Positions 1-20,945 of a stretch of DNA of 64,000 nucleotides are shown one piece after another (within the stretch, counting starts at the first letter, position 1; every line of letters starts with the position of its first letter). A program made the position numbers and the translations under genes. The notes under the pieces were generated by a model. That model saw only the letters and a list, made by a program, of their open reading frames with translations, was not told where the DNA came from and searched no databases. This DNA is from a virus, in IMG/VR virus record IMGVR_UViG_3300033566_000060, positions 1-64,000 of that record. The stretch is one strand, 5' to 3'.

Positions 1-3000
1 GAGCGCGCACAACAAGTAAGGGAAGCCGTGAAATCTTTTGAACCTTCCAACGAATACGAAGCAGCGTTACATTACATAGCATCCGGAGGTGGTATAAACA
101 CAGATTCTGCTTCTAAAGAAACCGGAGCTTCTAAAGAAACCGGAGTTTCTAAAGGAGAGGTGAAATGGGCTACAAATTTCAAGAAAAACGAGGATTTACC
201 ATCAGTGGAAAGAGCTTCGGAAATTATTGCCGAATCATCGTCAACACCTTTGGACCAACCATCCGTCCGAGATGCTATGATTGAAATCTTATCATCACAC
301 AAAAGTATTACTGAAGTACACGATAAGATTTTAGAGGCAAGAGAAGAAACAAATAAAAAACTAAAGGACGAAGAAAATCGTATCTTTATGGGTAGCTTAT
401 CGGAGCAGGAACGTACTTTTGTGGAAAGCAAATTAGCGGAAGATGATTATTTAAGTGAATTAAACGACGACGAAAAATTAGCGTATTATGAGCAACAATA
501 TGGAACAGAACAAGAAAGGAACCAATCAGAAAATAGATTGGACGGATCCGAGCAAACTAACGGACAACCAGAGAGCGGCAATCCAAGCGTACAAGAACGT
601 GAAGGAGCGCAACCAGGCAAAACAGCAACCGAAAAAATAACCGAAGACAATCTTCCGGACATCAACAAAAAAGGAGCGTCAAAAACCATTCCTTTGTCCG
701 ATGCTGTGGAAGCGAAAGTGTCCGTTCAGGAGTTTATGGACGGGGAAAACGGCTATTCCGTACAGCTTTTCAACAACGGAGAATTGGTGGAGGACAAACA
801 CGGCGATACCGAAACAGAATTCACTTCCGATGAAACTTCCGATTTGGTAAAATTCCTTGAATCCAAGAAAAAAGGGTATGCGTTAAGCCAAAAAGGTAAA
901 ACCGGAAAACCGGAAGGAATTAAAGTGGAGGTACCCAACCAAAAAAGAAGGGTTTCCTTCAATATGTTTGGTGTGGAGATGTTCGGGGAACAGCAGGAAG
1001 ACGGTTCGATTATTGCAGATGACAATTCAAAATACTCCAAAGGAATGCAATCCAATGGTGTGATTACCGATGTAGTGGGTATCGATGAAGGTAAAAACTA
1101 TCGAAATGAGGGTGATGTAGCCACACAGGGATTTGGTGGCGGACAACGTACCGACAGTTCGCTTTCCAAAGGAGGCGGTTCGATGTCCCGTAATTACTAT
1201 AAGAATAAAGTAAAAAGAGCATGGAACCGCTTGTTTAAAAGTAATGCAGGACTAGACCACAAATCAGGGGAAACATTACGTTCATTACAACGAGACATCG
1301 ATTACCTTCAGGATTTGATGGGTACCGACTCTGGTATTTTTAAAAACGTATTGAAAGCCACGCAAAAAGCATCTAAAAACAAAGAAGACTTCAGATTGAA
1401 GTTATTGGCTTTGAACCGTTACATGCAAGGTGGTGGAGGTAATCTTGACTTCTTAGGAAAGAACGAGAAAGCACAACTATCCTACCTTAGAGACAGAATC
1501 GATTCGTTAAGCGAACAGGTAATCAATACGTTGCAGGACCAAGCAGACGGTTTACCTGATGGGGATAAAAAAACTGCGTTATTAGAATTTATCCAAAAGT
1601 TAAAAGACAATAAAGGGAAATATGTCAACCGTTCGTATCAGATATTTCATGACGAAAAATACCGTGAGGGAATGGCGATGGCATATGACAAGATGCCTAC
1701 GGAATACCGAAAGCGCTACGATACGGCAGTGAATTTCATGATGCGTGAAGAAGGGATGACCAAAGAAGAAGCACAAAGCTATATTTCCGGTTATTTGGAC
1801 GATATTATCCGAAGTAAGAACGACATATCACAAGGATTTGCCGGACGTGCCGATGCGCCGTTTTTGAAAAAAAGAAAAGATTTGCCGATAGAATTTCAGG
1901 AATTATTAGGAGTCGTTCGTGATCCTTTGGAGAATTATTTACGCACGGTGGATAAAATATCGAGATACCTTGCCTCGTTGAAGTATCAGGAGAAAATGAA
2001 AAGCCATTTGTTGGAATCCGGAATTGGTATTACCGAACCGAAACAAGGTTATACCAAACTGACAAGTGACGTAAAAGAATGGGAAGCATTGAGCGACATG
2101 TACGTTCCAGTGGAATTCAAACAAGCCATGGAAGACATGTTACCATTGGATAAGGTAAACCAATACGTTTTCAGAAAATGGATTGAGTTTGCTTCCTTGA
2201 CTAAAGTAGGTAAAACGGTATTGAATCCATCAGGGGTATTCCGTAACTTTATGTCGGGTACGTTTTTAGGACTGAATGCCGGACACTTTACGTGGACCAA
2301 CCCAAAAACGATGGGAATGGCTTTCAACCAGGCGCTCAAAACAAACACCGCAAAAAAAGGAATGGCAGGACTCCGTAAAGAACTGATTGAACAAGAGATT
2401 ATCGGTTCCGGAGCCGACTCTCAGGAGATGCTTACCTTTATGAATGACTTTTCCAACAGCATCGACAGAAAACTGTCCACAAACCCGTTGGTGCCGATAA
2501 TGAACGGAATGCAAAAGGCGTATGCTTTTGGGGATGACTTTTATAAAGTGTCCGGGTACATGATTGAGAAAAAACGTTTGATAGACACCGGAGTTTCGGA
2601 AGCAGAGGCAACACGCATGGCCGGAGAAAGAATACGAGGCGGTTATCCTACATATTCGTATCTACCGAGAGCGTTCAAGGAATTACGCCGTATTCCGTTG
2701 GTGGGAACTTTTATTTCCTTTCCTTACGAAGTGGTGCGTTCCACAAAAAACAACGCAATGTATGTGCATGAAGACTGGACTGAAGGAAGAAAGGTGATGG
2801 CGATGCAACGTGCCGCCGGAATGATGGTGGCCAACGTATTACCAACCGCATTAGCAGCGTATGTGGCAGCGGGATTGGGTGTTGATGATGAAGATGACGA
2901 TAAAATCAGGGAATTGCTTCCGGATTACCAACAGGACGCTTTGTTGATGTATTACGGTAAGGACGAAAAAGGCTATCCTAAGTTTGTGGATTTAACCGCT

Positions 3001-3930
3001 TTTGCACCATCGGAAGTAATCGTGAAGCCGTTACGTATTGTGATGGAAGAAAGAGAAGGCAGGACTGCTAAAGAAAAAATGGAAAAATCCATTATAGAAG
3101 TATTAAAACCATATTTGGGTGCCGACCTTTCGTACAAGACCGCAAATGAGTTAATGACCAACAACGATGAATTCGATAAAAAGATTTATCAGGCGGACAG
3201 TTTTTATGAGGCATTGACCAATAAAAAAGACCTGACACAGATATTGAATTACTACGCCAAGAAAGCCGGTCCCGGAGTGTATTCCAATGTCAGCGACTTT
3301 TTAAGAGCGAACGATAAGGGAAGTGAAGTGTTGGGGGATAAGTTTACGGCGTATGGGAAAGAGTACACGAATTTCGATGCTACGTTGGGATTCTTTGGGA
3401 TTCGCACCTCAACTGTAAACTACTCACAAGCGATTGTGAACAACAACAAAAGAACCACCGCTGTACTTAACGACAACAAGGAGTTTTTAAGAAAAGCAAT
3501 GAAGTCAACCACTAAAATGGCGGATGATCGCTTACAAATGAATTTCGATAGTTATGTAAAAGGAGAAGACGAAGCGTACAAAAAAGTATTGCGTGGGGTG
3601 GAAATTGGATTTAAATTCAATATCAATAAAGGGGAGATGGCAACGCTTTTTGAAAGTTCCAACTATTCCAAGAAAGACATCGCATTTTTGGTGAACGGAT
3701 TCCAACCACCTTACGATTACATCACCAAGGAAACAGCAGTAAACAAGATTACAGAAATAAGGAGCAACTACGATGCGGAAAAAGCAAAAGAGGTTGTACA
3801 GAATTACAAAAGCAATATCGAGCGATTCAACGATATGGTGGATTCAAAAAACAGAGCGTTATACGAATCCAACGGAGAGATTTATAAAAAACTGTACGGC
3901 AGATTTGGAACAAAAAACCCACTTAAATAG
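1..3930 (+). CDS. large virion-associated protein, 5'-partial (open at window edge)
   Basis: Frame 1 has no stop from base 1 to TAG 3928-3930, so the listed GTG at 28 is not the real start. More than 1300 codons. One internal hydrophobic helix (MMVANVLPTALAAYVAAGLGV). No enzyme motif recognised. It would follow the late module if the genome is circular or permuted. Confidence 0.85.
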   Translation, partial: ERAQQVREAVKSFEPSNEYEAALHYIASGGGINTDSASKETGASKETGVSKGEVKWATNFKKNEDLPSVERASEIIAESSSTPLDQPSVRDAMIEILSSHKSITEVHDKILEAREETNKKLKDEENRIFMGSLSEQERTFVESKLAEDDYLSELNDDEKLAYYEQQYGTEQERNQSENRLDGSEQTNGQPESGNPSVQEREGAQPGKTATEKITEDNLPDINKKGASKTIPLSDAVEAKVSVQEFMDGENGYSVQLFNNGELVEDKHGDTETEFTSDETSDLVKFLESKKKGYALSQKGKTGKPEGIKVEVPNQKRRVSFNMFGVEMFGEQQEDGSIIADDNSKYSKGMQSNGVITDVVGIDEGKNYRNEGDVATQGFGGGQRTDSSLSKGGGSMSRNYYKNKVKRAWNRLFKSNAGLDHKSGETLRSLQRDIDYLQDLMGTDSGIFKNVLKATQKASKNKEDFRLKLLALNRYMQGGGGNLDFLGKNEKAQLSYLRDRIDSLSEQVINTLQDQADGLPDGDKKTALLEFIQKLKDNKGKYVNRSYQIFHDEKYREGMAMAYDKMPTEYRKRYDTAVNFMMREEGMTKEEAQSYISGYLDDIIRSKNDISQGFAGRADAPFLKKRKDLPIEFQELLGVVRDPLENYLRTVDKISRYLASLKYQEKMKSHLLESGIGITEPKQGYTKLTSDVKEWEALSDMYVPVEFKQAMEDMLPLDKVNQYVFRKWIEFASLTKVGKTVLNPSGVFRNFMSGTFLGLNAGHFTWTNPKTMGMAFNQALKTNTAKKGMAGLRKELIEQEIIGSGADSQEMLTFMNDFSNSIDRKLSTNPLVPIMNGMQKAYAFGDDFYKVSGYMIEKKRLIDTGVSEAEATRMAGERIRGGYPTYSYLPRAFKELRRIPLVGTFISFPYEVVRSTKNNAMYVHEDWTEGRKVMAMQRAAGMMVANVLPTALAAYVAAGLGVDDEDDDKIRELLPDYQQDALLMYYGKDEKGYPKFVDLTAFAPSEVIVKPLRIVMEEREGRTAKEKMEKSIIEVLKPYLGADLSYKTANELMTNNDEFDKKIYQADSFYEALTNKKDLTQILNYYAKKAGPGVYSNVSDFLRANDKGSEVLGDKFTAYGKEYTNFDATLGFFGIRTSTVNYSQAIVNNNKRTTAVLNDNKEFLRKAMKSTTKMADDRLQMNFDSYVKGEDEAYKKVLRGVEIGFKFNINKGEMATLFESSNYSKKDIAFLVNGFQPPYDYITKETAVNKITEIRSNYDAEKAKEVVQNYKSNIERFNDMVDSKNRALYESNGEIYKKLYGRFGTKNPLK
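109..162 (+). repeat. 18-bp in-frame tandem repeat (two exact copies plus one diverged)
   Basis: gcttctaaagaaaccgga occurs at 109-126 and 127-144, followed by gtttctaaaggagaggtg at 145-162. It encodes ASKETG-ASKETG-VSKGEV. Confidence 0.85.
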
Positions 3931-5220: not shown

Positions 5221-5319
5221 TACGCAATGCGTTTTTTTGAATAGATTTTAATTAATGACTTATTTCGCAATAAGTTACAAAATATATTTTTTTTGTGCAT
5301 TGCGTATATATGCGAGTTA
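5221..5319 (-). repeat. terminal hairpin closing the minus-strand cassette array
   Basis: After the TAAC of cassette E (plus-strand 5316-5319), a 10-bp stem forms between TACGCAATGC (5221-5230) and GCATTGCGTA (5297-5306). An inner hairpin ACTTATT/AATAAGT is present. No following GTTA box. Confidence 0.6.
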
Positions 5320-5328
5320 GCAGTAATA

Positions 5329-5586
5329 CTACTCAACATTGTCTATATCTCCGTAAGTTTCTAATTCACATTTTTTGTTTAGTAAAATTAAATCTTCCAT
5401 TTTACCAACTACATGAACAGTTTTCCATTTGTTATGATAGTCTTTCATGCTTTTTAATTTTACGTTAAATTCTTTATGATATTTTTTAACGCATTCGGCA
5501 AATTTTATCGGAACATTTGAAATTAAAGTACTACTGCTAACATCGGTTTTGTTCAATGCCTTGTTTTGGTCTTTTTCTGTATTCAT
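5329..5586 (-). CDS. hypothetical protein (cassette E cargo)
   Basis: Boxed by GTTAGCAGTAGTAC (plus coords 5528-5541) and GTATTACTGCTAAC (5316-5329). The ATG lies in the loop of the upstream hairpin. There is no ATG close downstream of the 5' box; the first is 27 codons in. Confidence 0.7.
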   Translation of the reverse strand: MNTEKDQNKALNKTDVSSSTLISNVPIKFAECVKKYHKEFNVKLKSMKDYHNKWKTVHVVGKMEDLILLNKKCELETYGDIDNVE

Positions 5587-5665
5587 TCCATTTAATTTTA
5601 AGTTAGTGTTTACTTGTTGTGTTCAGTTTTAAATCAACGGCACTAAACAAAGCCGAGAACCGTTA
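5538..5665 (-). repeat. attC-like imperfect hairpin element (between cassettes D and E), 128 bp
   Basis: Minus strand reads TAAC-GGTTC-TCGG-C-TTTGTTTAGTGCC ... GGCATTGAACAAA-A-CCGA-T-GTTA. About 18-bp stem with a C:A mismatch 6 nt from GTTA. The loop contains the start codon of the next ORF. Confidence 0.8.
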
Positions 5666-5672
5666 GCGGTAA

Positions 5673-6101
5673 TTATACATCAACTTCATGTGAAAAAGAT
5701 TCGTATAAATATCTTTGTCCTAATTTCGTTAAAGTCCATTTTTTAGTAACTAATCCTAATTCCTCAACAATACATTTTGCTGTATGACCTGTATAATATC
5801 CACCTGCGCATTTCAATAATGTGCTTCTTAGTACATCGCGTTTTTCACAATCACCAAAATTTGCATTACCCCAAGCATAAATCAATTGTTCGTCTGAAAT
5901 TATTTTTTTCAACTCGCCATTATAACTACCGCTAACATTGGTTTTATGCAATTGCAAGGCTTGGTCTTTTTCTGCCGTGATTATTTCTTTTGCCTTTAAT
6001 ACATCCTCTACAAGTTTTTTACCTGTTGTGGTTAATGAATCAGTCAAATTCCAATCAAATTTGTCATGCAATAGTTTTAAAATTTCTTCGTAATCTTCCA
6101 T
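5673..6101 (-). CDS. hypothetical protein (cassette D cargo fused to a hairpin-encoded N-terminal segment)
   Basis: Boxed by GTTAGCGGTAGTTA (5923-5936) and TAATTACCGCTAAC (5662-5675). The first ~45 codons lie inside the enlarged hairpin loop. The conserved LQLHKTNVSGS segment is encoded across the right arm and the box. Confidence 0.7.
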   Translation of the reverse strand: MEDYEEILKLLHDKFDWNLTDSLTTTGKKLVEDVLKAKEIITAEKDQALQLHKTNVSGSYNGELKKIISDEQLIYAWGNANFGDCEKRDVLRSTLLKCAGGYYTGHTAKCIVEELGLVTKKWTLTKLGQRYLYESFSHEVDV

Positions 6102-6157
6102 AATTTTTGTTTTGTTAAGTGATTAATCTTTGCAACTGCATAAAGCCTTTGACGTTA
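5933..6157 (-). repeat. attC-like hairpin element, enlarged (225 bp, between cassettes C and D)
   Basis: Stem formed by plus-strand 5940-5957 and 6130-6147 (ggttttatgcaattgcaa / ttgcaactgcataaagcc) with one G:T pair and the conserved C:A mismatch. The ~170-nt loop carries 45 codons of ORF 5673..6101. Confidence 0.7.
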
Positions 6158-6526
6158 GCGGCAATACTTGACGTGCTTCCGTAAATCATTCGGCAGTTGA
6201 TAAACGGTAATCAATCTATTGTCGCAAAAGAAAAATATGTTTTCACCATAAATTCTTACGTTGTTGCAATGCTTGTAATTGAACCAAAGTTTTGTCAGGT
6301 ATCTCATTAGACTGCCTTTTGTGTCCTTATGTCTTACACCTTCCAAAAAAGCCTTTTCAGCCATTTTATCCAAAACTTTTGACTTCCAATTCAGCCTTTC
6401 TTTTGCTCTTTCGTAGGCGTGTTCCGTGATTAGTACTGCCGCTAACACAGGTTTTGCGTCAGGCGGGCATACGTTGTTATCTTCAACTTTTATTTCTTCT
6501 ATCATCTTTTGTGGTTTTATGAACAT
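6155..6526 (-). CDS. hypothetical protein (cassette C cargo)
   Basis: Boxed by GTTAGCGGCAGTAC (6433-6446) and GTATTGCCGCTAAC (6154-6167). The stop codon lies inside the 3' box. Start moved to ATG 6526 in the hairpin loop, because the track start at 6577 lies in the previous cassette's 3' box. Confidence 0.65.
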   Translation of the reverse strand: MFIKPQKMIEEIKVEDNNVCPPDAKPVLAAVLITEHAYERAKERLNWKSKVLDKMAEKAFLEGVRHKDTKGSLMRYLTKLWFNYKHCNNVRIYGENIFFFCDNRLITVYQLPNDLRKHVKYCR

Positions 6527-6570
6527 TTGTAATTCTAATTCCCGCCCGAACGCAAAGCCTCGTAACGTTA
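6443..6570 (-). repeat. attC-like imperfect hairpin element (between cassettes B and C), 128 bp
   Basis: Minus strand reads TAAC-GTTAC-GAGG-C-TTTGCGTTCGGGCGGG ... CCCGCCTGACGCAAA-A-CCTG-T-GTTA. It has the same C:A mismatch position and one bulge. Confidence 0.8.
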
Positions 6571-6579
6571 GGAGCAAGC

Positions 6580-7029
6580 TTACGAGCGACCGTCAAAAAC
6601 GACAATCATACTATCTTTGGTCCCGCTTTGTTCCTTTCCATCTTTGTTTAATGGAATGTAAAAGTTTCTGTTTTCGTCTAACTTTCCAAATTTAATTCTA
6701 CCTTTTAAAAATTCTATTTCAGTTGCGTTTGGTTTGATCCATTCGTGAAATAATTTTGTGCTTGTAGATACCGGAATAAGGAAAACACAAACTTTTCCTT
6801 TATTCATTTCTTCAACTCCTTTTTTTACAAATTCCTCTTTTAGTTTTTGGCTATAAGGCGGATTTACAAAATTTGAGTTTCCCCATTCGATTTTCAAACC
6901 ATCATTTACAATTTCATTTTCATTGTAAGGACAAGGATCAAAATCAAAATTAAAACGCTTATTTAATTCCTCATATAATTTTGGAGGTGTAGCATAATTG
7001 TCATCGTTGTTTATGTGTATTTTTTTCAT
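6580..7029 (-). CDS. phage Dam-type N6-adenine DNA methyltransferase (cassette B cargo)
   Basis: YATPPKLYEEL...FDFDPCP...W...NSNFVNPPYS pattern (NPPY motif IV) typical of small phage N6A methylases. Boxed by GTTAGGAGCTGGCT (7052-7065) and AGCTTGCTCCTAAC (6567-6580). It has its own ATG 23 nt after the 5' box. Confidence 0.75.
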   Translation of the reverse strand: MKKIHINNDDNYATPPKLYEELNKRFNFDFDPCPYNENEIVNDGLKIEWGNSNFVNPPYSQKLKEEFVKKGVEEMNKGKVCVFLIPVSTSTKLFHEWIKPNATEIEFLKGRIKFGKLDENRNFYIPLNKDGKEQSGTKDSMIVVFDGRS

Positions 7030-7061
7030 TTCAAATTTTTAGTTGATAAAAAGCCAGCTCC

Positions 7062-7187
7062 TAACATCGGTTTGAAAGCAATGGCAAAATATGTGGTTTA
7101 ATCACGTTTATCTTTCGCAAGAAATTCATTAGTAACGGAAAATTTATCTTTCCGAAATTTGCCACTGCTTCAAGCCGAGTACCGTTA
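7062..7187 (-). repeat. attC-like imperfect hairpin element (between cassettes A and B), 126 bp
   Basis: Minus strand reads TAAC-GGTAC-TCGG-C-TTGAAGCAGTGGCAAA ... TTTGCCATTGCTTTCAA-A-CCGA-T-GTTA. About 22-bp stem with the C:A mismatch and one bulged C. Confidence 0.8.
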
Positions 7188-7196
7188 GCGGTAATA

Positions 7197-7472
7197 CTAA
7201 TTTACATCATCATTCCATAAAGGATGGTCGCAATTATCACAAAAACCAACTCTTATTTCTCTATTATCTTTCTTTACGTTTATTTCCTTACAATCTGTAC
7301 ATTCATAAATTTTGAATCCAACAGGTAAAGCACTACCGCTAACACTGGTTTTATGCAATTGCAAGAGTTGTTTTAATTCAGTAAGCAACTGTTCATTTAA
7401 TTTTGTTATCGAACCGTGTTCTTTTGATAATTCAAGAGCTGTTATTTTATCTTGTACTGTTTTAAATTCCAT
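7197..7472 (-). CDS. zinc-ribbon protein (cassette A cargo fused to an N-terminal leader)
   Basis: C-terminal CxxC...CxxC (YECTDCKE...FCDNCDH). Boxed by GTTAGCGGTAGTGC (7330-7343) and GTATTACCGCTAAC (7184-7197). The leader ends in LQLHKTSVSGS, nearly identical in DNA to the cassette D leader. Confidence 0.7.
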   Translation of the reverse strand: MEFKTVQDKITALELSKEHGSITKLNEQLLTELKQLLQLHKTSVSGSALPVGFKIYECTDCKEINVKKDNREIRVGFCDNCDHPLWNDDVN

Positions 7473-15012: not shown

Positions 15013-15039
15013 ACGACAAAAACAAAGAAAAACGACAAA
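15013..15039. promoter_or_regulatory. two direct ACGACAAA boxes
   Basis: Copies at 15013-15020 and 15032-15039. They mirror two inverted TTTGTCGTG boxes at 15214-15232. Confidence 0.45.
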
Positions 15040-15093
15040 TAGTTAGTTTGTAGAATTTTACATAGAATGAGTCTAAATTGCAGTATATCAGCA

Positions 15094-15115
15094 CCGGACA
15101 AATGTCGGACAAATA
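15094..15115 (+). promoter_or_regulatory. tandem 11-bp operator-like repeat (C/T)CGGACAAAT(G/A) x2
   Basis: ccggacaaatg followed by tcggacaaata. The same tandem pair recurs at 28767-28787. Confidence 0.5.
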
Positions 15116-15213
15116 GAGGTGTTGCAAAATAAAACCGTAGTGTTTATTGGTGTTTGCGACGATTTGTTACAATCGGGGGGAGATTGTAACGGTAAAATCG
15201 TGTTGAAAATATT

Positions 15214-15232
15214 TTTGTCGTGTTTTGTCGTG
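15214..15232. promoter_or_regulatory. two TTTGTCGTG boxes (inverted relative to 15013-15039)
   Basis: tttgtcgtg at 15214-15222 and 15224-15232, just upstream of the rightward -7 box. Confidence 0.45.
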
Positions 15233-15245
15233 TAAAAATAAAATG

Positions 15246-15253
15246 TATATTTG
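15246..15253 (+). promoter_or_regulatory. Bacteroidota-type -7 promoter box (TATATTTG)
   Basis: Matches the TAnnTTTG consensus. Positioned to drive the plus-strand cassette array. Confidence 0.5.
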
Positions 15254-15261
15254 CTAAAGAA

Positions 15262-15387
15262 TAACGGTTCGCAGCTATACGAAGGGCGGGATTTAAAAAC
15301 AAAAATTTAATATGATGCAGAAAACTTTATTTGAAAACGAGAACTTGATTGAACCACTAAAACCCGCCTTTTGTATAGGTGCTGTTA
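15262..15387 (+). repeat. attC-like imperfect hairpin element H0 (head of plus array), 126 bp
   Basis: TAAC (15262-15265) plus GGTTC spacer. Stem 15271-15290 pairs with 15363-15382 (two G:T pairs, one G:G mismatch 5 nt from GTTA). The 72-nt loop contains ATG 15312. Ends in GTTA 15384-15387. Confidence 0.8.
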
Positions 15388-16346
15388 GCCGCAGTACTTT
15401 GTTGTTCGGGGATTGCTTGATTGAAAGCGATAAAATAGAAAGTGGCTCAGTTGATTTAATATTGACCGATTTGCCTTATGGAAATATGAAGGGATTAAAT
15501 TATAAAGTATTTAATAACCCCAGTAAAGATAACGGTGGTTTGATTTGGGATAATACGATTGATGCAAATAAAATAATGCAAATAGCAAACCGAATACTTC
15601 GTAAAAATGGTAAAATGCTTTTATTTGCTCAACAACCGTTCACGACTGAATTAATAAATGCACAAATACCAAACTTACCGCATTCTTATAATTTAATTTG
15701 GGAGAAAACAGACTTTGCAAACTGCTTATTAATAAATAAGTCTTGTGCTAATTTTTATGAAGATATTTTGATATTTAGTAAGAACCACCAAAAACACGAC
15801 TTTGAAGGAATGCACCCATTAAGACATTATTTTAAAAAAGTTATGGATTTTATAGGGCTTAATAAAAAAGCGATAGTTGAAAAGATAGGACAAAAGGCAG
15901 ACCATACATTTAGAACTGATAGTACTCAATACGGATTATGCACCGAAAAAACATACTTAGAATTGATTGAAGTATTTGGTATTGATAAAATAGAAGGATT
16001 TAAAACCTTTGCAGAATTAAAGCAAATTGATACTGAATATAGAACTGACTTATTAAAGCAAATGAATAACCAATACCCAAGTACTTTTAACCTTTGGGAG
16101 GGCAACAAATACAAAAGCAACATTTTGAAATACAAAAAGGATTACAACGGCTATCATCCTACTCAAAAACCTATTTTATTGCTTGAAGATTTAATAAAGA
16201 CTTTTAGTAACGAAGGTAATTTAGTAGTTGACTTAACAATGGGTAGCGGCTCAACTGGAGTTGCTTGTAAGAACACAAATAGAAACTTTATCGGAATTGA
16301 GAAAGATGAAAATTATTATAATGTCGCTGTACGGAGGTGTTCTTAG
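15312..16346 (+). CDS. DNA methyltransferase, N4/N6 beta-class (cassette 1 cargo)
   Basis: DLILTDLPYGN (motif IV, DPPY-like) precedes the C-terminal VVDLTMGSGSTGVAC (motif I). Boxed by GTTAGCCGCAGTAC (15384-15397) and GTATTGCGGCTAAC (16346-16359). The first 24 codons lie in the hairpin. Confidence 0.8.
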   Translation: MMQKTLFENENLIEPLKPAFCIGAVSRSTLLFGDCLIESDKIESGSVDLILTDLPYGNMKGLNYKVFNNPSKDNGGLIWDNTIDANKIMQIANRILRKNGKMLLFAQQPFTTELINAQIPNLPHSYNLIWEKTDFANCLLINKSCANFYEDILIFSKNHQKHDFEGMHPLRHYFKKVMDFIGLNKKAIVEKIGQKADHTFRTDSTQYGLCTEKTYLELIEVFGIDKIEGFKTFAELKQIDTEYRTDLLKQMNNQYPSTFNLWEGNKYKSNILKYKKDYNGYHPTQKPILLLEDLIKTFSNEGNLVVDLTMGSGSTGVACKNTNRNFIGIEKDENYYNVAVRRCS

Positions 16347-16355
16347 TATTGCGGC

Positions 16356-16481
16356 TAACGTCCTGCCACTTGGCGATGTGGCAAAAAAGTACGCCCGAAT
16401 TATCGGATTATTACAAGTGCGTAAGGCACAAAACCAATTATAAATTAAGCCTGAACTTGCCATATTGCCAAATGGCTGTTA
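16356..16481 (+). repeat. attC-like imperfect hairpin element H1, 126 bp
   Basis: TAAC plus GTCCT spacer. Stem 16365-16384 pairs with 16457-16476, with C16369 opposite A16472 and two G:T pairs. 72-nt loop. Ends in GTTA 16478-16481. Confidence 0.85.
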
Positions 16482-16512
16482 TGTGAGGTTGTGGGTTTTT
16501 AAAACAGATTTT

Positions 16513-16950
16513 ATGACAATAAACATTGATTTTGATGGAACTTGTGTTACTCACGATTTCCCAAACGTAGGAAAAAGTATTGGTGCTGAAAAAGTGCTAA
16601 AAAGATTAGTAGATAATGGACATCATTTGATATTATTTACAATGCGTTCTGATAGAAAAGAGGCAAAACCTGTAATTGACCCAACAATACAAAATGTAAC
16701 AGGTAAATTCTTAACAGAAGCGGTTGAATGGTTTAATAGAAATGATATTAAACTTTACGGAATACAGAAAAATCCAACACAATTAAATTGGACTACTTCG
16801 CCAAAAAGCTATGCTGAATTAATGATTGATGATAGTGCATTAGGTTGTCCGTTAAGATTTGATGCAGAAGTTTCAGAAAGACCATTTGCTTGTTGGGAAA
16901 CAATTGAGCAGTATCTGGAGAATATGGGTTGTTTTAAAACGCAATCGTAA
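16513..16950 (+). CDS. HAD-superfamily phosphatase-like protein (cassette 2 cargo)
   Basis: N-terminal DFDGT (DxDxT) motif. Boxed by GTTATGTGAGGTTG (16478-16491) and CAATCTCACATAAC (16951-16964). Start taken at ATG 16513, downstream of the box. Confidence 0.6.
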   Translation: MTINIDFDGTCVTHDFPNVGKSIGAEKVLKRLVDNGHHLILFTMRSDRKEAKPVIDPTIQNVTGKFLTEAVEWFNRNDIKLYGIQKNPTQLNWTTSPKSYAELMIDDSALGCPLRFDAEVSERPFACWETIEQYLENMGCFKTQS

Positions 16951-16960
16951 CAATCTCACA

Positions 16961-17076
16961 TAACGTTACCTCGCTTGGCTTAGTGCCGAGTTATGAAAAC
17001 AATAATTTATAATTTAAAATAAACGTGATGAAAAACGATATAAACGAAAATAAGGCATTGAGCCAAACGAGTGTTA
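16961..17076 (+). repeat. attC-like imperfect hairpin element H2, 116 bp
   Basis: TAAC plus GTTAC spacer. Stem 16970-16987 pairs with 17054-17071, with C16974 opposite A17067. The loop holds the GTG/ATG at 17025/17028. The arms resemble those of the minus-array element at 5538-5665. Confidence 0.85.
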
Positions 17077-17360
17077 GGCGTTGTTTTGCTAATTCATTGC
17101 CTTTTTACGAATACCCAATTCCAGAAGAAAACAGAATTAAAAAATTATTTTCTGAATTTGAAATTAGAGAAATTGGTATTAAAAAAGTTACCGATAGAAT
17201 TCGTAAAGAAATGGGTGCGAAATTTAATTGCAATAGAGTTGAAGTTGATTGGATTACTTCTGAATTAAAAAAACCAACCAAAGATACTTTAAAGGCAATT
17301 GAATGGTTTGACGATTATAGATTTCCTAATAAAGTTAGACGTCTTGAAAATAACGCCTAA
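17028..17360 (+). CDS. hypothetical protein (cassette 3 cargo)
   Basis: Boxed by GTTAGGCGTTGTTT (17073-17086) and AAATAACGCCTAAC (17348-17361). The stop codon is inside the 3' box and the start is inside the H2 loop. Leader NKALSQTSV parallels NKALNKTDV of ORF 5329..5586. Confidence 0.7.
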   Translation: MKNDINENKALSQTSVRRCFANSLPFYEYPIPEENRIKKLFSEFEIREIGIKKVTDRIRKEMGAKFNCNRVEVDWITSELKKPTKDTLKAIEWFDDYRFPNKVRRLENNA

Positions 17361-17486
17361 CGTTCGAGTGCTTGCAGAAGTTAGGGAAAAGTAAGTACTA
17401 ATTTTCGATTAAAAAACTAATAATAACAAACACAAACCAAGCCATCAAGTAAAGCCTAAAACCCTAATTTTTGCAAACACTTGTTA
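17358..17486 (+). repeat. attC-like imperfect hairpin element H3, 129 bp
   Basis: Stem 17366-17386 pairs with 17462-17482 (21 bp, several G:T pairs, C17371 opposite A17477). 75-nt loop. Ends in GTTA 17483-17486. Confidence 0.85.
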
Positions 17487-17508
17487 TGTGCTGTTAATTT
17501 ATCTACAA

Positions 17509-17739
17509 ATGAAAATAGTAAAAATTGAATTAAAAGACAGTATTTTTTATGTTACCAAAAAGCCTAATCTTTTAGAAAAAATATTTGGCAAAAAAGAAAA
17601 AGTTGAAAGATATAGAACAAACAACGATGTATTTCACTATTTCAATCACGTAACTGTTTTTTACAAAGAAGATGGTTCTATTGTTTCTATTAGCAATAAA
17701 ATGTGTGATGTTCTTAATAACTACTTACGTTCTTTTTAA
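17509..17739 (+). CDS. hypothetical protein (cassette 4 cargo)
   Basis: Boxed by GTTATGTGCTGTTA (17483-17496) and TAATAGCACATAAC (17737-17750). ATG 17509 chosen because the track GTG at 17488 lies inside the box. Confidence 0.65.
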   Translation: MKIVKIELKDSIFYVTKKPNLLEKIFGKKEKVERYRTNNDVFHYFNHVTVFYKEDGSIVSISNKMCDVLNNYLRSF

Positions 17740-17746
17740 TAGCACA

Positions 17747-17874
17747 TAACGTTCCGCAACTACACGTCTGTTGCGTAAAAGAACAAAACCATCTTTCAGT
17801 TTAACACGGATTTGAAAGGTACAAAACCAAATATAAATTAATCACAATGTAGCAATAGCGTGTAATTGCTGTTA
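17747..17874 (+). repeat. attC-like imperfect hairpin element H4, 128 bp
   Basis: Stem 17756-17766 pairs with 17859-17869, with C17760 opposite A17865. The loop shares ACAAAACCAAWTATAAATTAA with H1. Confidence 0.8.
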
Positions 17875-17889
17875 TAAGCAGAACGAGTT

Positions 17890-18291
17890 ATGAAAAATAA
17901 AATTTTTGTTTTAGAAGATTTAGATTTTTATTTACCTGATAGTTTTAAAGGAATGGGTAAGCAGTACTTATTAGATTGTATTTTTAACGATAAAATACAA
18001 CGTAAATGGTCGCCAAAAATAGGGGATGTTATGATTGGATGTACTGGAAATATATTTGTTGTTTCATCAGAACACAAACTCAAAGAAGTTTTAGGCGGAA
18101 ACTTATTCTTTTTTGGTGGAGGATTATGCAATAGAGATGGTGGATGTACTCTTAATGACACATATTCATTAACTATGAATAAAAGTGGAAAATGGATTCA
18201 ATACACTAAAGGAGGTTATGAAGAAACAAGCAATCCTTATCACAGTTCGTTTTCTGATTTCAGATATATTCCTTATCCACACGAATTGTAG
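17890..18291 (+). CDS. hypothetical protein (cassette 5 cargo)
   Basis: Boxed by GTTATAAGCAGAAC (17871-17884) and GTTTTGCTTATAAC (18291-18304). It has its own ATG 6 nt after the 5' box. Confidence 0.7.
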   Translation: MKNKIFVLEDLDFYLPDSFKGMGKQYLLDCIFNDKIQRKWSPKIGDVMIGCTGNIFVVSSEHKLKEVLGGNLFFFGGGLCNRDGGCTLNDTYSLTMNKSGKWIQYTKGGYEETSNPYHSSFSDFRYIPYPHEL

Positions 18292-18300
18292 TTTTGCTTA

Positions 18301-18356
18301 TAACGGCTATATGTACAAAACCTTCTAAACCATTAATAAAATAAACACTATACGCC
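18301..18356 (+). repeat. degenerate terminal hairpin abutting the recombinase start codon
   Basis: TAAC-GGCTATATG ... CACTATACGCC-ATG. Weak stem with bulges. The loop keeps the ACAAAACC motif of H1/H4. No GTTA box follows; the recombinase ATG takes its place. Confidence 0.5.
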
Positions 18357-19157
18357 ATGAAAAACTCAAACTTTGTACAAAAATATGAGAGAGATTTAAA
18401 AGTTAAAAACTACTCTCAGAATACTATTAAAAATTATGTTGCACAGATCAATATGTTTTTGGGCTATTTCAAAGAAAAGGATAGCCCGAAACATATCTCT
18501 TCAGACGACATAAAAAACTATCTTTTAACCGCCAAGGAAGTAAATAGTCAACGGCACATGCATTCGGCAATAAAACTGTTCTACAAGTTAACGGTACATC
18601 AGCCTAAAAAGTTTCAATTTATAGAGTATTCCAGGCGCGAAAAACGTTTGCCAAAAATAATCGATAAGGATTACATTATTCAACAGATTGGTAAAATTGA
18701 AAACGTAAAGCATAAAGCGATTATAACGCTTACTTTTTCCACCGGAATGCGTGTTTCAGAAGTATGCAATTTAAAAATAGAAAACATCGACAGCAAAAGA
18801 ATGTTGATTCTCATTAAAAACGCAAAAGGGAATAAGGACCGATATGTTCCTTTATCGCAAACAACACTGGAAACATTACGCATTTACTTCTTAGAATATC
18901 ACCCAAAAGAATATTTATTCAATGGCCAATTTGATTTACAGTATTCACACCGGAGCTGTAACCAGATTGTAAAGAAGTATCTCGGCAACGAATATCATTT
19001 TCACCAATTGAGGCATTCGAACGCTACCGCACTTCTGGAAGCCGGAACCGATTTGAGATATATACAGAAACATCTTGGACATTCGAACGTAAAGACAACA
19101 GAAATATATTGCCATGTATCAACCGCTATGCTTTCAAAATTAAATTTACCAATCTAA
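18357..19157 (+). CDS. small Xer/IntI-like tyrosine recombinase
   Basis: SAM-like N-terminal domain (YSQNTIKNYVAQINMFLGYF). Catalytic set: TGMRVSEV (R), GKGNKDRYVPL (K), HQLRHS (HxxR), GHSNVKTTEIYCHV (H...Y). At 266 aa it is shorter than canonical IntI. Confidence 0.85.
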   Translation: MKNSNFVQKYERDLKVKNYSQNTIKNYVAQINMFLGYFKEKDSPKHISSDDIKNYLLTAKEVNSQRHMHSAIKLFYKLTVHQPKKFQFIEYSRREKRLPKIIDKDYIIQQIGKIENVKHKAIITLTFSTGMRVSEVCNLKIENIDSKRMLILIKNAKGNKDRYVPLSQTTLETLRIYFLEYHPKEYLFNGQFDLQYSHRSCNQIVKKYLGNEYHFHQLRHSNATALLEAGTDLRYIQKHLGHSNVKTTEIYCHVSTAMLSKLNLPI

Positions 19158-19182
19158 TCAGTAAAATTCAATTTAAGAACCT

Positions 19183-20430
19183 ATGAATATCCGATATTAC
19201 ATAAGAGGCACCAAAGAGCTAAAAAACATTTATGTGCGTTTGGTTTCCAAAGGGATTGATGTTTCGGCTCCGGTGGGTATTTTCGTGCAAGAGTTTCAAT
19301 GGGATTCCAAAAAAGAGCTTTGCGATTCCAACCAAACCAACGCCAAATTGTACCAACTCAAAGCGGTATTGTTGGGCCGATACAACCAATCGTATGCCTC
19401 CGGAGAGGCCATCGATAAAAATTGGCTTTTGGAAACAATCAAATCGGTGTTCCAAAGACCGGCGCAAGAGGTGAAATTGGTATCGAAAGCACATACTATC
19501 TACCTGAGTGATTTTTGCAGTTTTTGGTTGCAGCAACACGCAAAGTCATGGAAAGTCTCGGCTTTGGAAACCATGGGAGAAACACTAAAAAAGCAATACG
19601 AGAATTTCGTGCTAATTTTGGAGGCTTACGAAAAATCGTTGGATAGCAAGATAAAACTAAAAGAAGCGGATTCCGACTTTATTTATGGGTTTGTGGGGTA
19701 TCTATCCAAAGAACAAAAGTTCTCACGGGAAACGGTAAAAAGAAGTGTAATCCGATTGAAATTCTTTTTAAAGCGCGCGGAAGAATTGCGTTTCGAGGTG
19801 AATAAGGATTATTTGAAACCGGTGTACCTTGAAAAACAACCCGAAATCCAGGACGTGTACCATAGCGAATCCGACATCCAAAAACTGTTCGCGTTGGATT
19901 TATCAGACGACTACAAAATGGAAGCCGCCAACGATAATATGATTATGACATGTTGGTTGGGATTACGTGTATCGGATTTTATGACGCGTTTCAATTTAGA
20001 CAGCATCAAAGACGGATATGTTTCCATCAAGACGCAAAAAACCGGATCATTCGTAGTTATTCCTTTGCACCCGATGGTAAAAGCGATATTAGCAAAACGT
20101 TTTGGACAACTCCCGCCTAAACTCTCGAATACGGAGTACAATTTACTGATAAAAAAGGTAGCGGAGAAAGCAGGACTTAACGAATTGGTGTACGGAAAGA
20201 AATACAACCCGGAAACGAACCGAAAGGAAATCGGATATTACAAAAAGTACGAATTGGTAACGAGTCACACTGGCCGAAAAAGTTTCGCAACAAACCTAAA
20301 AGGCAAGGTTCCGGACGATGTTATTATCAATTGTGCTGGCTGGACCTCACCTACGATGTTGGCTCATTACGACAAGAGAAACGGTAAACAATTTGCAGAA
20401 CAACTAAACGAATACTACAACGGAAAATAA
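19183..20430 (+). CDS. int: Bacteroidota phage-type tyrosine integrase
   Basis: 415 aa with an N-terminal arm-binding-like domain. Catalytic set: LGLRVSDF (R), SHTGRKS (HxxR), AGWTSPTMLAHYDK (W...Y). Confidence 0.85.
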   Translation: MNIRYYIRGTKELKNIYVRLVSKGIDVSAPVGIFVQEFQWDSKKELCDSNQTNAKLYQLKAVLLGRYNQSYASGEAIDKNWLLETIKSVFQRPAQEVKLVSKAHTIYLSDFCSFWLQQHAKSWKVSALETMGETLKKQYENFVLILEAYEKSLDSKIKLKEADSDFIYGFVGYLSKEQKFSRETVKRSVIRLKFFLKRAEELRFEVNKDYLKPVYLEKQPEIQDVYHSESDIQKLFALDLSDDYKMEAANDNMIMTCWLGLRVSDFMTRFNLDSIKDGYVSIKTQKTGSFVVIPLHPMVKAILAKRFGQLPPKLSNTEYNLLIKKVAEKAGLNELVYGKKYNPETNRKEIGYYKKYELVTSHTGRKSFATNLKGKVPDDVIINCAGWTSPTMLAHYDKRNGKQFAEQLNEYYNGK

Positions 20431-20454
20431 ATTTTGGTTTTAAAGAAAAATAAT

Positions 20455-20462
20455 TATCTTTG
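20455..20462 (+). promoter_or_regulatory. -7 promoter box TATCTTTG
   Basis: Perfect TAnnTTTG match 25 nt after the int stop. No ORF follows it. Confidence 0.45.
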
Positions 20463-20467
20463 TCTTA

Positions 20468-20570
20468 TCAATTCGGCTCGACACCTTATTGATTTAAGGT
20501 GAAGCTGTTTTGATGAAAGACACATTAACCCCTAATAAGAATCGTCGAGCCTTCTTGTTAGGGTTTTTGT
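20468..20570 (+). ncRNA. candidate ~100-nt small RNA (promoter to intrinsic terminator, no ORF)
   Basis: Closing helix GGCTCGAC (20475-20482) / GTCGAGCC (20544-20551). Inner hairpin ACCTTA-ttgatt-TAAGGT (20483-20500). Terminator CCCTAATAAGAA / TTCTTGTTAGGG plus TTTTT (20530-20568) overlaps the 3' strand of the closing helix. Confidence 0.4.
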
Positions 20571-20911
20571 TTTTGTCGTAAATCACGTTTGCGGAAACCT
20601 TTAAACTTCTTACAAAATGAATCGTTAGATTCGGGATGCTCGACAGGAAGTACCAGACTAAAGCACAATGGTAGAGCGAAGTTTTAAGACTTTAAAGTGT
20701 GCGAAAGTTGCTAACTTAAATAAAGTAGCTTACCTATTCGGGCGATGAAACTCAACGGAAGAAAGTAATAGTTCCCAATGGATTTAAGCTGTTTTTTAGC
20801 TTATTTCTGTTGGGATAATTATACCTACTAAACAATAAAATCTAACAAAAGAAAGTAACTTTATTTATAAGTATAATGAATAAAAAAACTTTATAAATAA
20901 TAATATAATAC

Positions 20912-20945
20912 AAAAAACCACTCCGATTAAGAGTGGTTTTTTTTT
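20912..20945. terminator. bidirectional terminator between convergent blocks
   Basis: A6-CCACTC-cgattaa-GAGTGG-T10. Confidence 0.7.

Follow-up and report, generated by a model that had tools for sequence, protein, structure and literature searches.

Which of two tandem tyrosine recombinases, if either, acts on the array of hairpin-bounded gene cassettes that precedes them is the question raised by this viral locus, which we analysed within a 64,000-nucleotide stretch of the virus record IMGVR_UViG_3300033566_000060 (hereafter the window). Integrons are regarded as bacterial, and recently also archaeal, devices of chromosomes and plasmids whose integrases are defined by a specific insertion, and chromosomal integrons have recently been found to store anti-phage defence cassettes. 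A first-pass annotation of the locus had proposed that the smaller, Xer/IntI-like enzyme is the cassette recombinase and that the larger one is the integrase of lysogeny. Both genes were confirmed exactly as it had called them, on the plus strand at 18357..19157 (266 aa) and 19183..20430 (415 aa).

Hairpin-led cassettes end at a conserved attI-like site

Hairpin elements were identified with a detector for TAAC..GTTA boundaries and complementary arms, together with DNA folds. Array 1 contains five such elements, all on the plus strand, compared with 0–3 matches per 64 kb of shuffled sequence, and the remaining detector matches in the unshuffled window are short hairpins of terminator type. TAAC cores at 15262, 16356, 16961, 17358, 17747 and 18301 bound the cassettes, and in each of the five the bases after the starting GTTA complement those before the closing TAAC at 13 of 14 positions. 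The features of the locus are:

15262..18304, plus strand: cassette array 1, made of five cassettes in which an ORF follows a 5′ hairpin element
15262..15387, plus strand: hairpin element E0 (detector score 30), whose loop and 3′ arm encode the methyltransferase N-terminus (start codon and first 25 codons)
15312..16346, plus strand: cassette 1 cargo, an N6/N4 DNA methyltransferase of 344 aa (Pfam PF01555, 2.8e-29; PHROG 67)
16356..16481, plus strand: hairpin element E1 (DNA fold −22.2 kcal/mol, z −2.6)
16513..16950, plus strand: cassette 2 cargo, a 145-aa ORF (PHROG 1238, labelled phosphoheptose isomerase; gene call in locus L115)
16961..17076, plus strand: hairpin element E2 (detector score 21), whose 3′ arm lies within the N-terminus of ORF 17025–17360
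17025..17360, plus strand: cassette 3 cargo, a 111-aa ORF without family match
17358..17486, plus strand: hairpin element E3 (detector and DNA fold)
17509..17739, plus strand: cassette 4 cargo, a 76-aa ORF without family match
17747..17874, plus strand: hairpin element E4 (detector and DNA fold)
17890..18291, plus strand: cassette 5 cargo, a 133-aa ORF without family match, in the cassette adjoining the attI-like site
18301..18356, plus strand: attI-like platform site of about 56 bp, TAAC|GGCTATATGTACAAAACCTTCTAAACCATTAATAAAATAAACACTATACGCC (opening TAAC|GGCTATATGTAC...)
18357..19157, plus strand: small tyrosine recombinase of 266 aa, proposed to act as cassette integrase
19183..20430, plus strand: large tyrosine integrase, 415 aa, of Bacteroidota phage type, outside the cassette platform
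20431..20943, no strand: non-coding stretch of 513 bp downstream of the large integrase, a candidate attP by inference only

Element E0 is 87% identical to the element preceding a methyltransferase in Flavobacterium phage hemulen6-1, with homology that begins at the TAAC core; E1 is 91% identical to an element of locus L006 whose flanking genes differ, and E4 shares 89% identity with one from Flavobacterium phage sniff9-1. A shorter hairpin at 16961–16995 was considered for E2 and rejected, as only 16961–17076 meets flank complementarity with E3; the flanks of the chosen element are complementary to those of both E1 and E3 at 13 of 14 positions. Among the cargo, the 145-aa product of cassette 2 looks to have a HAD-like fold, and methyltransferases alone recur, with no homologues of the window's small cassette ORFs found in other arrays. 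Scans for tRNAs and Rfam families at gathering thresholds returned nothing at the recombinase locus or in the arrays.

The first-pass annotation had the last, degenerate hairpin of the array directly abutting the recombinase ATG and judged that no attI-like site was evident. Both statements need to be withdrawn: a distinct site of about 56 bp, 18301–18356, separates the last cassette from the ATG and is conserved in 17 loci (alignment A1), where it follows a cassette-specific flank and TAAC and precedes the recombinase start codon. The junction between cassette and platform falls after AAC, and we found no other copy of the site within the window. Homology of the window to two further loci (L003 and L113) begins at 18299/18300, and a sister metagenome contig starts exactly at 18301, the TAAC of attI. 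An exact-pattern scan for the attI/ATG junction gave no metagenome contigs, and the corresponding viral scan gave only one contig that was already known. The description of the small gene as co-oriented with and downstream of the array holds beyond the window, since every phage locus has its integrase at the distal end of the array.

Cassette ends covary and cassettes vary at the core

Counted over 14 loci, 52 hairpin elements precede the small recombinase gene and 0 follow it (88.7 kb searched upstream versus 93.2 kb downstream). TAAC and GTTA are invariant in these elements, which beyond AAC/GTT follow RYYYAAC/GTTRRRY only loosely. Flank complementarity reaches 7.24/10 between consecutive element pairs versus 3.07 across all pairs, with 31 of 39 consecutive pairs scoring at least 7/10. 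Positions 1–6 and 8–10 of the resulting outer stem are Watson–Crick, use all pair types and covary, and position 7 is T·G in 26 of 31. The hairpin arms behave similarly, with a score of 25.6 for cognate arms versus 11.0 for non-cognate ones, compensatory changes at 12 of 17 pairs in RNAalifold, and 87.3% paired cells versus 65.8% in shuffles (0/500) and 36–48% in slid controls. The elements are also asymmetric between strands: those of phages have 71 G·T on the sense strand versus 28 on the other strand and a bulge of 5 nt on the 5′ arm versus 1 nt on the 3′ arm, and their chromosomal relatives are the mirror image (G·T 6 versus 24, bulge 1 nt versus 5 nt).

Natural variation falls at the same core. 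Contigs that share a 100% identical recombinase, P0022, which is 69% identical to that of the window, have five different cassettes at one attI, and a 338-nt cassette in this lineage is found at more than one place in the array, its breakpoints falling at TAAC. Among cultured Polaribacter Freya phages, whole cassettes are inserted or deleted exactly at AAC| beside their homologue: Freya_9/10 and Freya_5/6 each show one insertion difference at AAC|ACCCC, Freya_8 is missing an internal block between two AAC| cores, and Freya_1 is missing the entire 4.9-kb array. These cleanest polymorphisms carry the caveat that the Freya enzyme is only 34% identical to the small recombinase of the window. A pairwise comparison of IMG/VR loci at a threshold of at least 85% identity contained no near-identical pairs.

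Together, these comparisons show how the locus is built, that its parts stay linked across loci, that paired sequences covary with a bias between strands, and that insertions and excisions at the core occur naturally as polymorphisms. From the 52-to-0 polarity, the attI-like site and the variation at TAAC/AAC, we consider it highly probable that the 266-aa recombinase of this flavobacterial phage serves an integron-like cassette platform as its integrase, as the first-pass annotation had suspected. Catalysis is inferred, with no biochemistry behind it: the 266-aa protein as catalyst, a single-stranded substrate and the resolution of products by replication are all inferences, and for folded single-stranded DNA as the substrate the evidence is only indirect, from the strand-specific G·T bias and the fixed T·G wobble.

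The small recombinase resembles XerA and lacks the IntI-specific insertion

The 266-aa protein has a two-domain fold and the SAM-like N-terminal domain and RKHRHY catalytic set that had been read from its ORF, with Pfam matches to Phage_int_SAM_4 (1.4e-11), Phage_int_SAM_1 (6.9e-10) and Phage_integrase (1e-36), and catalytic residues R132, K157, H216-x-x-R219, H242 and Y251 that do not change across 15 family members. The family is 266–267 aa long and has thousands of homologues. Its top NCBIfam models are XerA_Arch (181 bits), XerC (153.5), XerD (146.9) and the integron integrase TIGR02249 (139.5), the last match being split into two stretches, and the protein reaches none of their curated cut-offs (220, 335, 330 and 265, respectively). 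The nearest solved structures are those of XerA, 4a8e and 5hxy.

Alignment of the family profile with IntI4 (2a3v) pairs positions 9–176 with residues 8–179 and positions 208–257 with residues 259–308; in the intervening gap, profile positions 176–208 stand opposite IntI4 residues 179–259, and about 48 extra residues of IntI are missing from the family. An AF2 model (alignment A3), which is moderate (pLDDT 70, last 45 C-terminal residues poor) and was used for fold class only, has no extra helix between residues 182 and 197. The alignment and the model thus agree with the earlier inference that the protein is too short to contain the IntI-specific segment. Judged by its sequence, the protein is an intact XerA/Xer/IntI-type tyrosine recombinase without that insertion.

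Two features count against the cassette-integrase reading: the I2 insertion is missing, and the best matches are of XerA type, not IntI. The I2-helix insertion is held to be essential for attC recombination by IntI (PMC8138268, PMC4792948). Grouping with dimer-resolution Xer proteins had been named at the outset as grounds for abandoning a cassette role; such grouping is seen in part, at the sequence level, where XerA supplies both the nearest model and the nearest structure, but genomic context outweighs it, with enzymatic activity remaining an inference. No dif-like 11-6-11 site was recognised in 18301–18356, a search made by eye only.

The large integrase as a proposed separate lysogeny module

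Matches of the 415-aa protein to Phage_integrase (PF00589; 4e-5, 23.9 bits, Pfam cut-off 27.1) and SAM_5 (PF13102; 4e-4, 21.1 bits, Pfam cut-off 22.3) are weak, and R, HxxR and Y are discernible in its sequence. Its 187 homologues of about 415 aa with PF13102 and PF00589, a few of them also with the PF17293 arm-binding domain, are consistent with its description as a typical Bacteroidota phage integrase; the arm-binding-type N-terminus ascribed to it was not recovered, as no such domain was detected in the protein itself. Tandem pairing of the small and large recombinases is not conserved: tblastn found the 415-aa integrase in none of 18 viral loci bearing the small recombinase, and a search of related IMG/VR loci with the 415-aa integrase returned none. 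We propose that the 415-aa protein is an ordinary lysogeny integrase in a module separate from the cassette platform. The candidate attP stretch behind it, 20431–20943, has no ORF, no tRNA or Rfam match and no repeat elsewhere in the window, and self-comparison of the window revealed no terminal redundancy and no att duplication.

The gene order of a Flavobacterium columnare prophage (CP197485) is primase, array, site, small gene and then structural genes, with the attI-like site intact in the middle of the prophage. The small recombinase is therefore not the lysogeny integrase there, a result that, with the absence of the large gene from the 18 small-recombinase loci, supports the assignment of cassettes to the small enzyme and of lysogeny to the large one. 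The conserved 18301–18356 site was also considered as an attP and was rejected because it is intact mid-prophage. The small gene likewise lies between replication and structural modules in Ingeline, Leef, L113 and L121–128.

These observations bear on the alternative that survives best, very unlikely as we consider it to be, in which the small enzyme is an Xer/Cre-like resolvase or a second lysogeny integrase acting on the adjacent double-stranded site while homologous or illegitimate recombination between similar hairpins shuffles the cassettes, a hyperplastic early region. The nearest models and structures (XerA/XerD) and the missing IntI insertion suit this reading, a conserved site beside the gene would also suit a cre/loxP-type arrangement, and the authors who cultured North Sea flavophages took the small integrase, in their isolates and in related environmental phages, as a marker of temperate life (PMC8776804). 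However, near-identical phages vary from the AAC/TAAC core by whole hairpin-plus-ORF units, cassette ends covary with each other as would not be expected from homologous recombination, the F. columnare prophage retains both site and gene in its interior, so that the site is not an attP, and the window phage already has a conventional integrase. The temperate-lifestyle reading of the small integrase is probably wrong for this recombinase family.

Arrays without the recombinase and relatives in chromosomes

A second array in the window has no recombinase:

5300..7343, minus strand: cassette array 2, CALIN-like, without recombinase, with hairpins and an orphan junction
7187–7062, 6570–6443, 6157–5933 and 5665–5538, minus strand: hairpin elements of array 2 (arm detector)
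7029–6580, minus strand: Dam methyltransferase within the array
5329–5297, minus strand: orphan attI-like junction ending array 2, GTATTACTGCTAAC|TCGCATATATACGCAATGC

Array-bearing Lillamyvirus phages gave no tblastn match to the small recombinase at 1e-20, and in a relative of the window phage the gene is reduced to an N-terminal remnant of 96 aa. Recombinases about 40% identical to the small one adjoin arrays of classical polarity in Bacteroidota and other chromosomes (loci L060, L063, L066, L067, L072, L079 and L098, from Bacteroidota, Desulfitobacterium and Nitrospirae); these enzymes are annotated as XerA_Arch or 'integron integrase' (NCBIfam NF040815) and are also without the IntI insertion. 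Like the phage arrays, the chromosomal arrays have TAAC...GTTA sites of about 125 nt and the cassette flank signature, and like the phage platform they have an attI-like junction, ..TATATGTGA|GTTA. Unlike the phage arrays, they have the recombinase upstream, the hairpin 3′ of the ORF, and a bottom strand that folds.

Next in standing, and again very improbable, is that a host enzyme, either such a chromosomal relative or XerC/D, services the hairpins and that the phage gene of the window is dispensable or inactive. Arrays with the same elements but without the gene, in array 2 of the window and in Lillamyvirus, do count against the cassette-integrase reading, as another enzyme could be acting there, and both the related recombinases found with arrays in Bacteroidota and the 96-aa remnant point the same way. 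Against a host enzyme, the phage gene is strongly conserved in length, catalytic set and number of homologues and is strictly linked to its own attI-like site, and the phage sites are opposite in strand polarity to the chromosomal ones, which favours a dedicated platform.

The weakest alternative, likewise very unlikely, takes the hairpins as elements of transcription or of the RNA that are unrelated to the recombinase, such as attenuators, processing sites or regulators of early-gene translation (compare T4 PeSL). The G·T bias of phage arrays does lie on the transcribed sense strand and, taken alone, would also fit RNA structure, and A-rich motifs are conserved in the loops, some of which also hold the start codon of the following ORF, but chromosomal relatives with the same site type show the bias on the antisense strand, the outer stem pairs opposite cassette ends and includes the exact natural insertion/deletion breakpoints, no T-run terminator follows the hairpins, and the strict link to recombinase and attI would be left unexplained. 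Given these loop motifs and occasional start codons, the elements may also act in expression.

A proposed mechanism and its relation to known systems

For the phage-borne integron-like platform that we favour, we propose that the attI-like site 18301–18356 and the recombinase gene directly behind it form the receiving end, at the distal end of an early operon. Each cassette starts with an imperfect hairpin of about 125 nt, 5′-TAAC-G-NNNN-stem...loop...stem-T-GTTA-3′, followed by the ORF, and ends with about 10 nt complementing the bases after its own GTTA and then the next TAAC. The recombinase is envisaged to cut and exchange one strand at TAA|C. Recombination of a folded single-stranded cassette site with attI would insert the cassette next to the gene, and recombination of one cassette site with another would excise a circle, in which the joined cassette ends would close an outer stem of 14 bp that includes the fixed T·G wobble. 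It is the coding (sense) strand that would fold, as the equivalent of the integron bottom strand, so that the ORFs face the integrase and not away from it. Diverse and rich in DNA methyltransferases, the cargo could supply the phage with an exchangeable set of anti-restriction and accessory genes.

With integrons, the phage platform shares a tyrosine recombinase gene beside a primary site (attI) that accumulates cassettes, imperfect-palindrome sites with an inverse core ..TAAC and a core GTTA.. in which structure is conserved over sequence, crossover at AA|C, and cassettes whose start complements the inverse core at their end. In both systems bulged bases and G·T bias tell which strand folds, the array changes next to an integrase that stays conserved, its breakpoints falling at the core, some arrays lack a recombinase (compare CALINs), and the order along the folding strand, cassettes-AAC|attI-integrase (sense), is identical. 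The phage integrase differs in being 266 aa long, without the IntI-specific insertion and under the IntI model cut-offs, and it lies at the promoter-distal end in the orientation of the cassettes, whereas integron integrases are divergent, with Pc at the attI end. Phage ORFs lie on the folding (sense) strand with the hairpin 5′ of the ORF, where it may hold the start codon; the sites have one 4–5-nt bulge by the core and the fixed T·G wobble in place of two extrahelical bases; the outer stem of the cassette is 14 bp; and the platform resides in phage genomes.

XerA and XerC/XerD share the small two-domain architecture, SAM-like N-domain and RKHRHY set, but act at a single chromosomal site, whereas the small recombinase is tied to many-site arrays and a private attI. 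The CTX phage demonstrates that Xer-type enzymes are able to use a folded single-stranded hairpin; in contrast to such Xer-exploiting elements (CTX phage, IMEX), the recombinase here is encoded by the phage and not hijacked from the host. The pdif modules of Acinetobacter plasmids and the PeSL cassettes of T4-type phages are small gene modules bounded by short inverted sites or stem-loops and shuffled between related replicons. The former use double-stranded XerC/D sites and host enzymes, and shuffling of the latter is thought to occur by homologous recombination with no dedicated recombinase. An attI-like platform and long covarying hairpins are, to our knowledge, absent from both.

In the literature searched, which left most subscription journals outside coverage, we found no earlier description of such arrays or of a phage-borne integron. 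We think it likely that flavobacterial and other Bacteroidota phages carry a distinct class of integron, in which an I2-less XerA-like integrase captures hairpin-led cassettes at an attI immediately upstream of its own gene, the sense strand folds, and methyltransferase, anti-defence and accessory genes are kept as a stock that can be exchanged. Such a platform in a virus, with an integrase free of the insertion and cassettes of reversed polarity, would extend integrons to new hosts and broaden how they are defined mechanistically. If this is true, the IntI insertion is no prerequisite for hairpin-cassette recombination, small 'integrase' genes used to call phages temperate would say nothing on lysogeny, and the same enzyme family runs overlooked arrays of classical polarity in the chromosomes of Bacteroidota; IntegronFinder surveys have reported almost nothing in Bacteroidetes. 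The methyltransferase and other cassettes of phages would mirror the storage of defence cassettes in chromosomal integrons. In related Baltic Flavobacterium phages, efficiency of plating goes with whether or not a methyltransferase is present (PMC7077304), and because they differ by single cassettes, the cultured Freya isolates open the cassette mechanism to direct testing. Elsewhere in the window, the sole match of the tRNA and Rfam scans was a permuted tmRNA call at 3858–4214.

A hairpin-bounded cassette array precedes the small recombinase

The window is part of a 70-kb contig from a JGI metagenome, and its phage looks complete or nearly complete. The first-pass annotation had called two tandem tyrosine recombinase ORFs, and both are present and separated by 25 bp. 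A divergent promoter region (~14966-15311) and the smaller of these recombinases enclose five ORFs, each preceded by an imperfect hairpin element of ~125 nt, and the array has an integron-like build in which an element and the ORF behind it constitute a cassette.

Cassette array and adjoining recombinase genes in the window
15262-15387, plus strand, hairpin element 1, TAAC start and GTTA end
16356-16481, plus strand, hairpin element 2, TAAC start and GTTA end
16961-17076, plus strand, hairpin element 3, TAAC start and GTTA end
17358-17486, plus strand, hairpin element 4, TAAC start and GTTA end
17747-17874, plus strand, hairpin element 5, TAAC start and GTTA end
18301-18356, plus strand, attI-like site, TAAC|GGCTATATGTACAAAACC..., recognized by conservation across loci
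18357..19157, plus strand, small recombinase ORF, 266 aa
19183..20430, plus strand, large integrase ORF, 415 aa

In all five window cassettes, the ten bases after the starting GTTA are the reverse complement of the ten before the closing TAAC, a match at 13 of 14 positions. Across 39 consecutive element pairs from related loci, Watson-Crick pairing with all four pair types holds at positions 1-6 and 8-10 of this outer stem. Counting outward from the core, position 7 is occupied by a T·G wobble that is fixed in 26 of the 31 cases with good pairing (for example window 16350/15394 and 18294/17881), with covarying Watson-Crick pairs on either side. The covariation between cassette ends implies that they pair in an outer stem. 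Inner-stem arms also covary, with a cognate score of 25.6 compared to 11.0 for non-cognate arms, and 44 elements aligned with plain MAFFT gave 17 pairs in RNAalifold, 12 with compensatory changes. Hairpin cells were paired in 87.3% of cases, versus 65.8% in shuffles (0/500) and 36-48% with the partner slid. The phage hairpins are asymmetric: TAAC on the 5′ arm is followed by ~5 unpaired bases, and GTTA is preceded by one. G·T pairs in these hairpins number 71 on the sense strand versus 28 on the other. We also observed an A(C)CTAAT motif after an A-rich AAATTAA stretch immediately ahead of the 3′ arm in many hairpins (alignments A1 of attI-like sites and A4 of elements; window 16449-16458 and 18333-18343), which resembles ACACTAATAAA within the attI-like site and could be a second recombinase-binding box or else an expression signal.

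A conserved attI-like site marks the crossover point

The ~56 bp from the TAAC of the last cassette to the recombinase ATG, where the first-pass annotation had missed any attI-like site, are conserved in the window and 16 other loci (consensus TAAC|TACTATATGTAnAAAAAATnTGTAAACACTAATAAAnTTAAnACTTnACAA-ATG) and occur in the window as a single copy. Homology between the window and its closest platforms (L003, and L113 with 94% protein identity) begins at 18299/18300, which is the core, and upstream of the core the window is unrelated to either. Position 1 of a 69.8-kb contig from sister sample 3300033569 (L116) is the T of the attI TAAC, window 18301, suggesting that cassette heterogeneity at the attI junction in the population caused the contig break. 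Over the 14 loci whose flanks were good, the small recombinase gene has 52 elements upstream and 0 downstream, and the order of replication genes, array, site, small recombinase and structural genes recurs in a Flavobacterium columnare prophage, Cellulophaga phage Ingeline, Polaribacter phage Leef, L113 and L121-L128. Two other roles, the site as attP and the small enzyme as the F. columnare lysogeny integrase, were rejected because site and gene both lie intact in the middle of the integrated prophage.

Natural variation defines the mobile unit. At least 24 contigs encode, in identical form, P0022, a recombinase of the window's own subfamily that is 69% identical to the window enzyme. At the eight places fetched, identity is 97-100% from TAAC|GAATATATGTAC... 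onward, and five different cassettes adjoin that TAAC. One 338-nt cassette, whose ORF encodes 66 aa, occupies the penultimate place in one P0022 array and a place near the start in others, with BLAST breakpoints at TAAC cores. Cultured Polaribacter Freya phages encode a 271-aa homologue that is 34% identical to the window small recombinase. The Freya_9 junction reads ..ttaccAAC|ACCCCTATAAC..ATG, and Freya_10 has a 307-nt hairpin-plus-ORF unit inserted exactly at this AAC| point, which is also where a 472-nt insertion distinguishes Freya_5 from Freya_6. Freya_8 lacks an internal block of ~890-900 nt bounded exactly by two AAC| cores in Freya_10, and in Freya_1 the 4.9-kb array is absent and attI is joined straight to the left boundary. 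Together, P0022 and Freya variation puts the crossover at or within AAC and shows that the mobile unit is a hairpin followed by an ORF. With the hairpin first, its 3′ arm or loop often bears the start codon of the next ORF, as for the window methyltransferase at 15312. Where the cargo is a methyltransferase, the coding sequence begins within the hairpin, whose loop and 3′ arm take in the start codon and ~25 N-terminal codons (window 15312-15387; phage hemulen6-1, L001, 9076-9130, 10142-10190 and 10954-11022), an overlap of recombination site and 5′ coding region that may couple site structure to translation.

The small recombinase and large integrase are independent modules

The small recombinase contains Phage_int_SAM_4/SAM_1 and Phage_integrase domains, and all 15 members of an alignment share residues R132, K157, H216, R219, H242 and Y251. 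None of its best NCBIfam matches reaches the curated cut-off, with XerA_Arch at 181 bits, XerC at 153, XerD at 147 and integron integrase at 139.5 over two stretches. Structurally it is closest to XerA (5hxy and 4a8e), with IntI4 next. The family is large (7565 proteins, E<=1e-10) and uniform in length, with the best 120 of these spanning 259-279 aa. In agreement with the first-pass proposal that the extra IntI-specific segment is lacking, the family is without ~48 residues of IntI4 (2a3v), with the I2 region among the missing residues, and the enzyme is by definition no IntI.

The large integrase matches SAM_5 and Phage_integrase near threshold. The integrases of its family measure ~415 aa, and some of them carry an arm-binding domain. 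It was not found in any of 18 viral loci with the small recombinase. Relatives of the window phage of ~69-72 kb have the large integrase in unchanged position and have not kept the small gene, which is missing in one and, in another of ~69 kb, cut to a 96-aa N-terminal SAM-domain ORF, with a NUMOD4/HNH endonuclease between this ORF and the large integrase (remnant region L118 6089-6925, L119 472-1308). The tandem is therefore two independent modules side by side. Behind the large integrase, a 513-bp non-coding stretch with several short hairpins (20431-20943) contains no tRNA and has no matching repeat elsewhere in the window, and is a candidate attP by inference only. In Freya phages, an HNH endonuclease gene lies directly behind the small integrase (L102 4969-5592).

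Chromosomal relatives carry mirror-image sites

A genome scan identified relatives of ~40% identity on Bacteroidota, Desulfitobacterium and Nitrospirae chromosomes, which score above the NCBIfam XerA_Arch/'integron integrase' cut-off and likewise lack the IntI insertion. ORFs around the recombinase match measure 281-558 aa, and these relatives may carry N-terminal extensions. Several precede arrays built from the same TAAC...GTTA sites in the classical arrangement (L060, L063, L066, L067, L072, L079 and L098), with Bacteroidota, a Desulfitobacterium and others among the carriers; for most of the 80 relatives fetched, no such array was found within 10 kb. In the chromosomal arrays, an attI-like ..TATATGTGA|GTTA junction lies ~100 nt behind the gene, the ORF precedes the hairpin, and the cassette flank signature is present. 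The sites are mirror images of those in phages, with unpaired stretches of 1 nt and 5 nt and with 6 G·T pairs on the top strand versus 24 on the bottom. The phage sites are thus of the same kind, with ORFs placed on the folding strand. Classical integrons and the phage platform share the order cassettes-AA|C-attI-integrase(sense) along the folding strand, whereas the phage cargo is inverted.

We rate the system as a platform of the integron type that differs in its integrase subtype, in the inverted polarity of its cargo and in having a virus as host. No description of such a phage cassette system was found in full-text literature; subscription journals were thinly covered, and an earlier description is not excluded. 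IntegronFinder 2 found Bacteroidetes nearly devoid of integrons, and papers on cultured phages read lysogeny from the small integrase or left the hairpins unmentioned (PMC8776804, PMC7077304).

Recombinase-less arrays and the proposed mechanism

Arrays also occur without a recombinase:
7343-5300, minus strand, second cassette array of the window, at least 4 hairpin elements plus a Dam methyltransferase

There is no recombinase gene at this array, which ends at an orphan attI-like junction GTATTACTGCTAAC|TCGCATATATACGC, also written TAAC|TCGCATATATACGCAATGC. The cultured Lillamyvirus Flavobacterium phages hemulen6-1 and sniff9-1 (L001, L002) carry 14-16 of the same elements flanking small ORFs, with up to five DNA methyltransferases in their arrays, and tblastn at 1e-20 found no small-recombinase homologue in either. 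Both kinds of array are the counterpart of integrase-less attC clusters. Plating efficiency of Lillamyvirus phages correlated with whether they had a particular methyltransferase (PMC7077304).

These arrays are the main reason that recombination in trans or by another enzyme remains possible. Cassette recombination by a host enzyme accounts for part of the data, as does an Xer/Cre-like resolvase or alternative integrase working on the adjacent site, but neither covers, in combination, the polymorphisms exact to the core, the covariation of cassette ends, the opposite strand bias in chromosomal relatives and the strict linkage of array, attI and gene. Action of the hairpins at the RNA level, again a partial explanation, fails on the same combination. 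The same four observations support the first-pass assignment of the small enzyme as the cassette recombinase, and we consider it very likely that this protein is the cassette integrase, with catalysis inferred.

For this proposed cassette integrase, we infer a mechanism in which the sense strand of the cassette site would fold during phage replication and the recombinase would bind the TAAC/GTTA box and bulged stem. Cleavage at TAA|C and exchange of one strand would result in insertion with attI or excision with another site, and replication would then resolve the product. In the excised circle, the cassette ends would meet and complete the outer stem of 14 bp, T·G wobble included.

The orphan junction of the second window array resembles ATATACGCAATGCGTA, a motif that is repeated ahead of the array at chromosomal locus L063. 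A permuted tmRNA gene was called on the minus strand at window 3858-4214 (ARAGORN; Rfam RF04321, 65 bits, E 2.6e-10), overlapping the 3′ end of a 1300-aa ORF with no Pfam match (28..3930), and G+C content shifts at about 4000.
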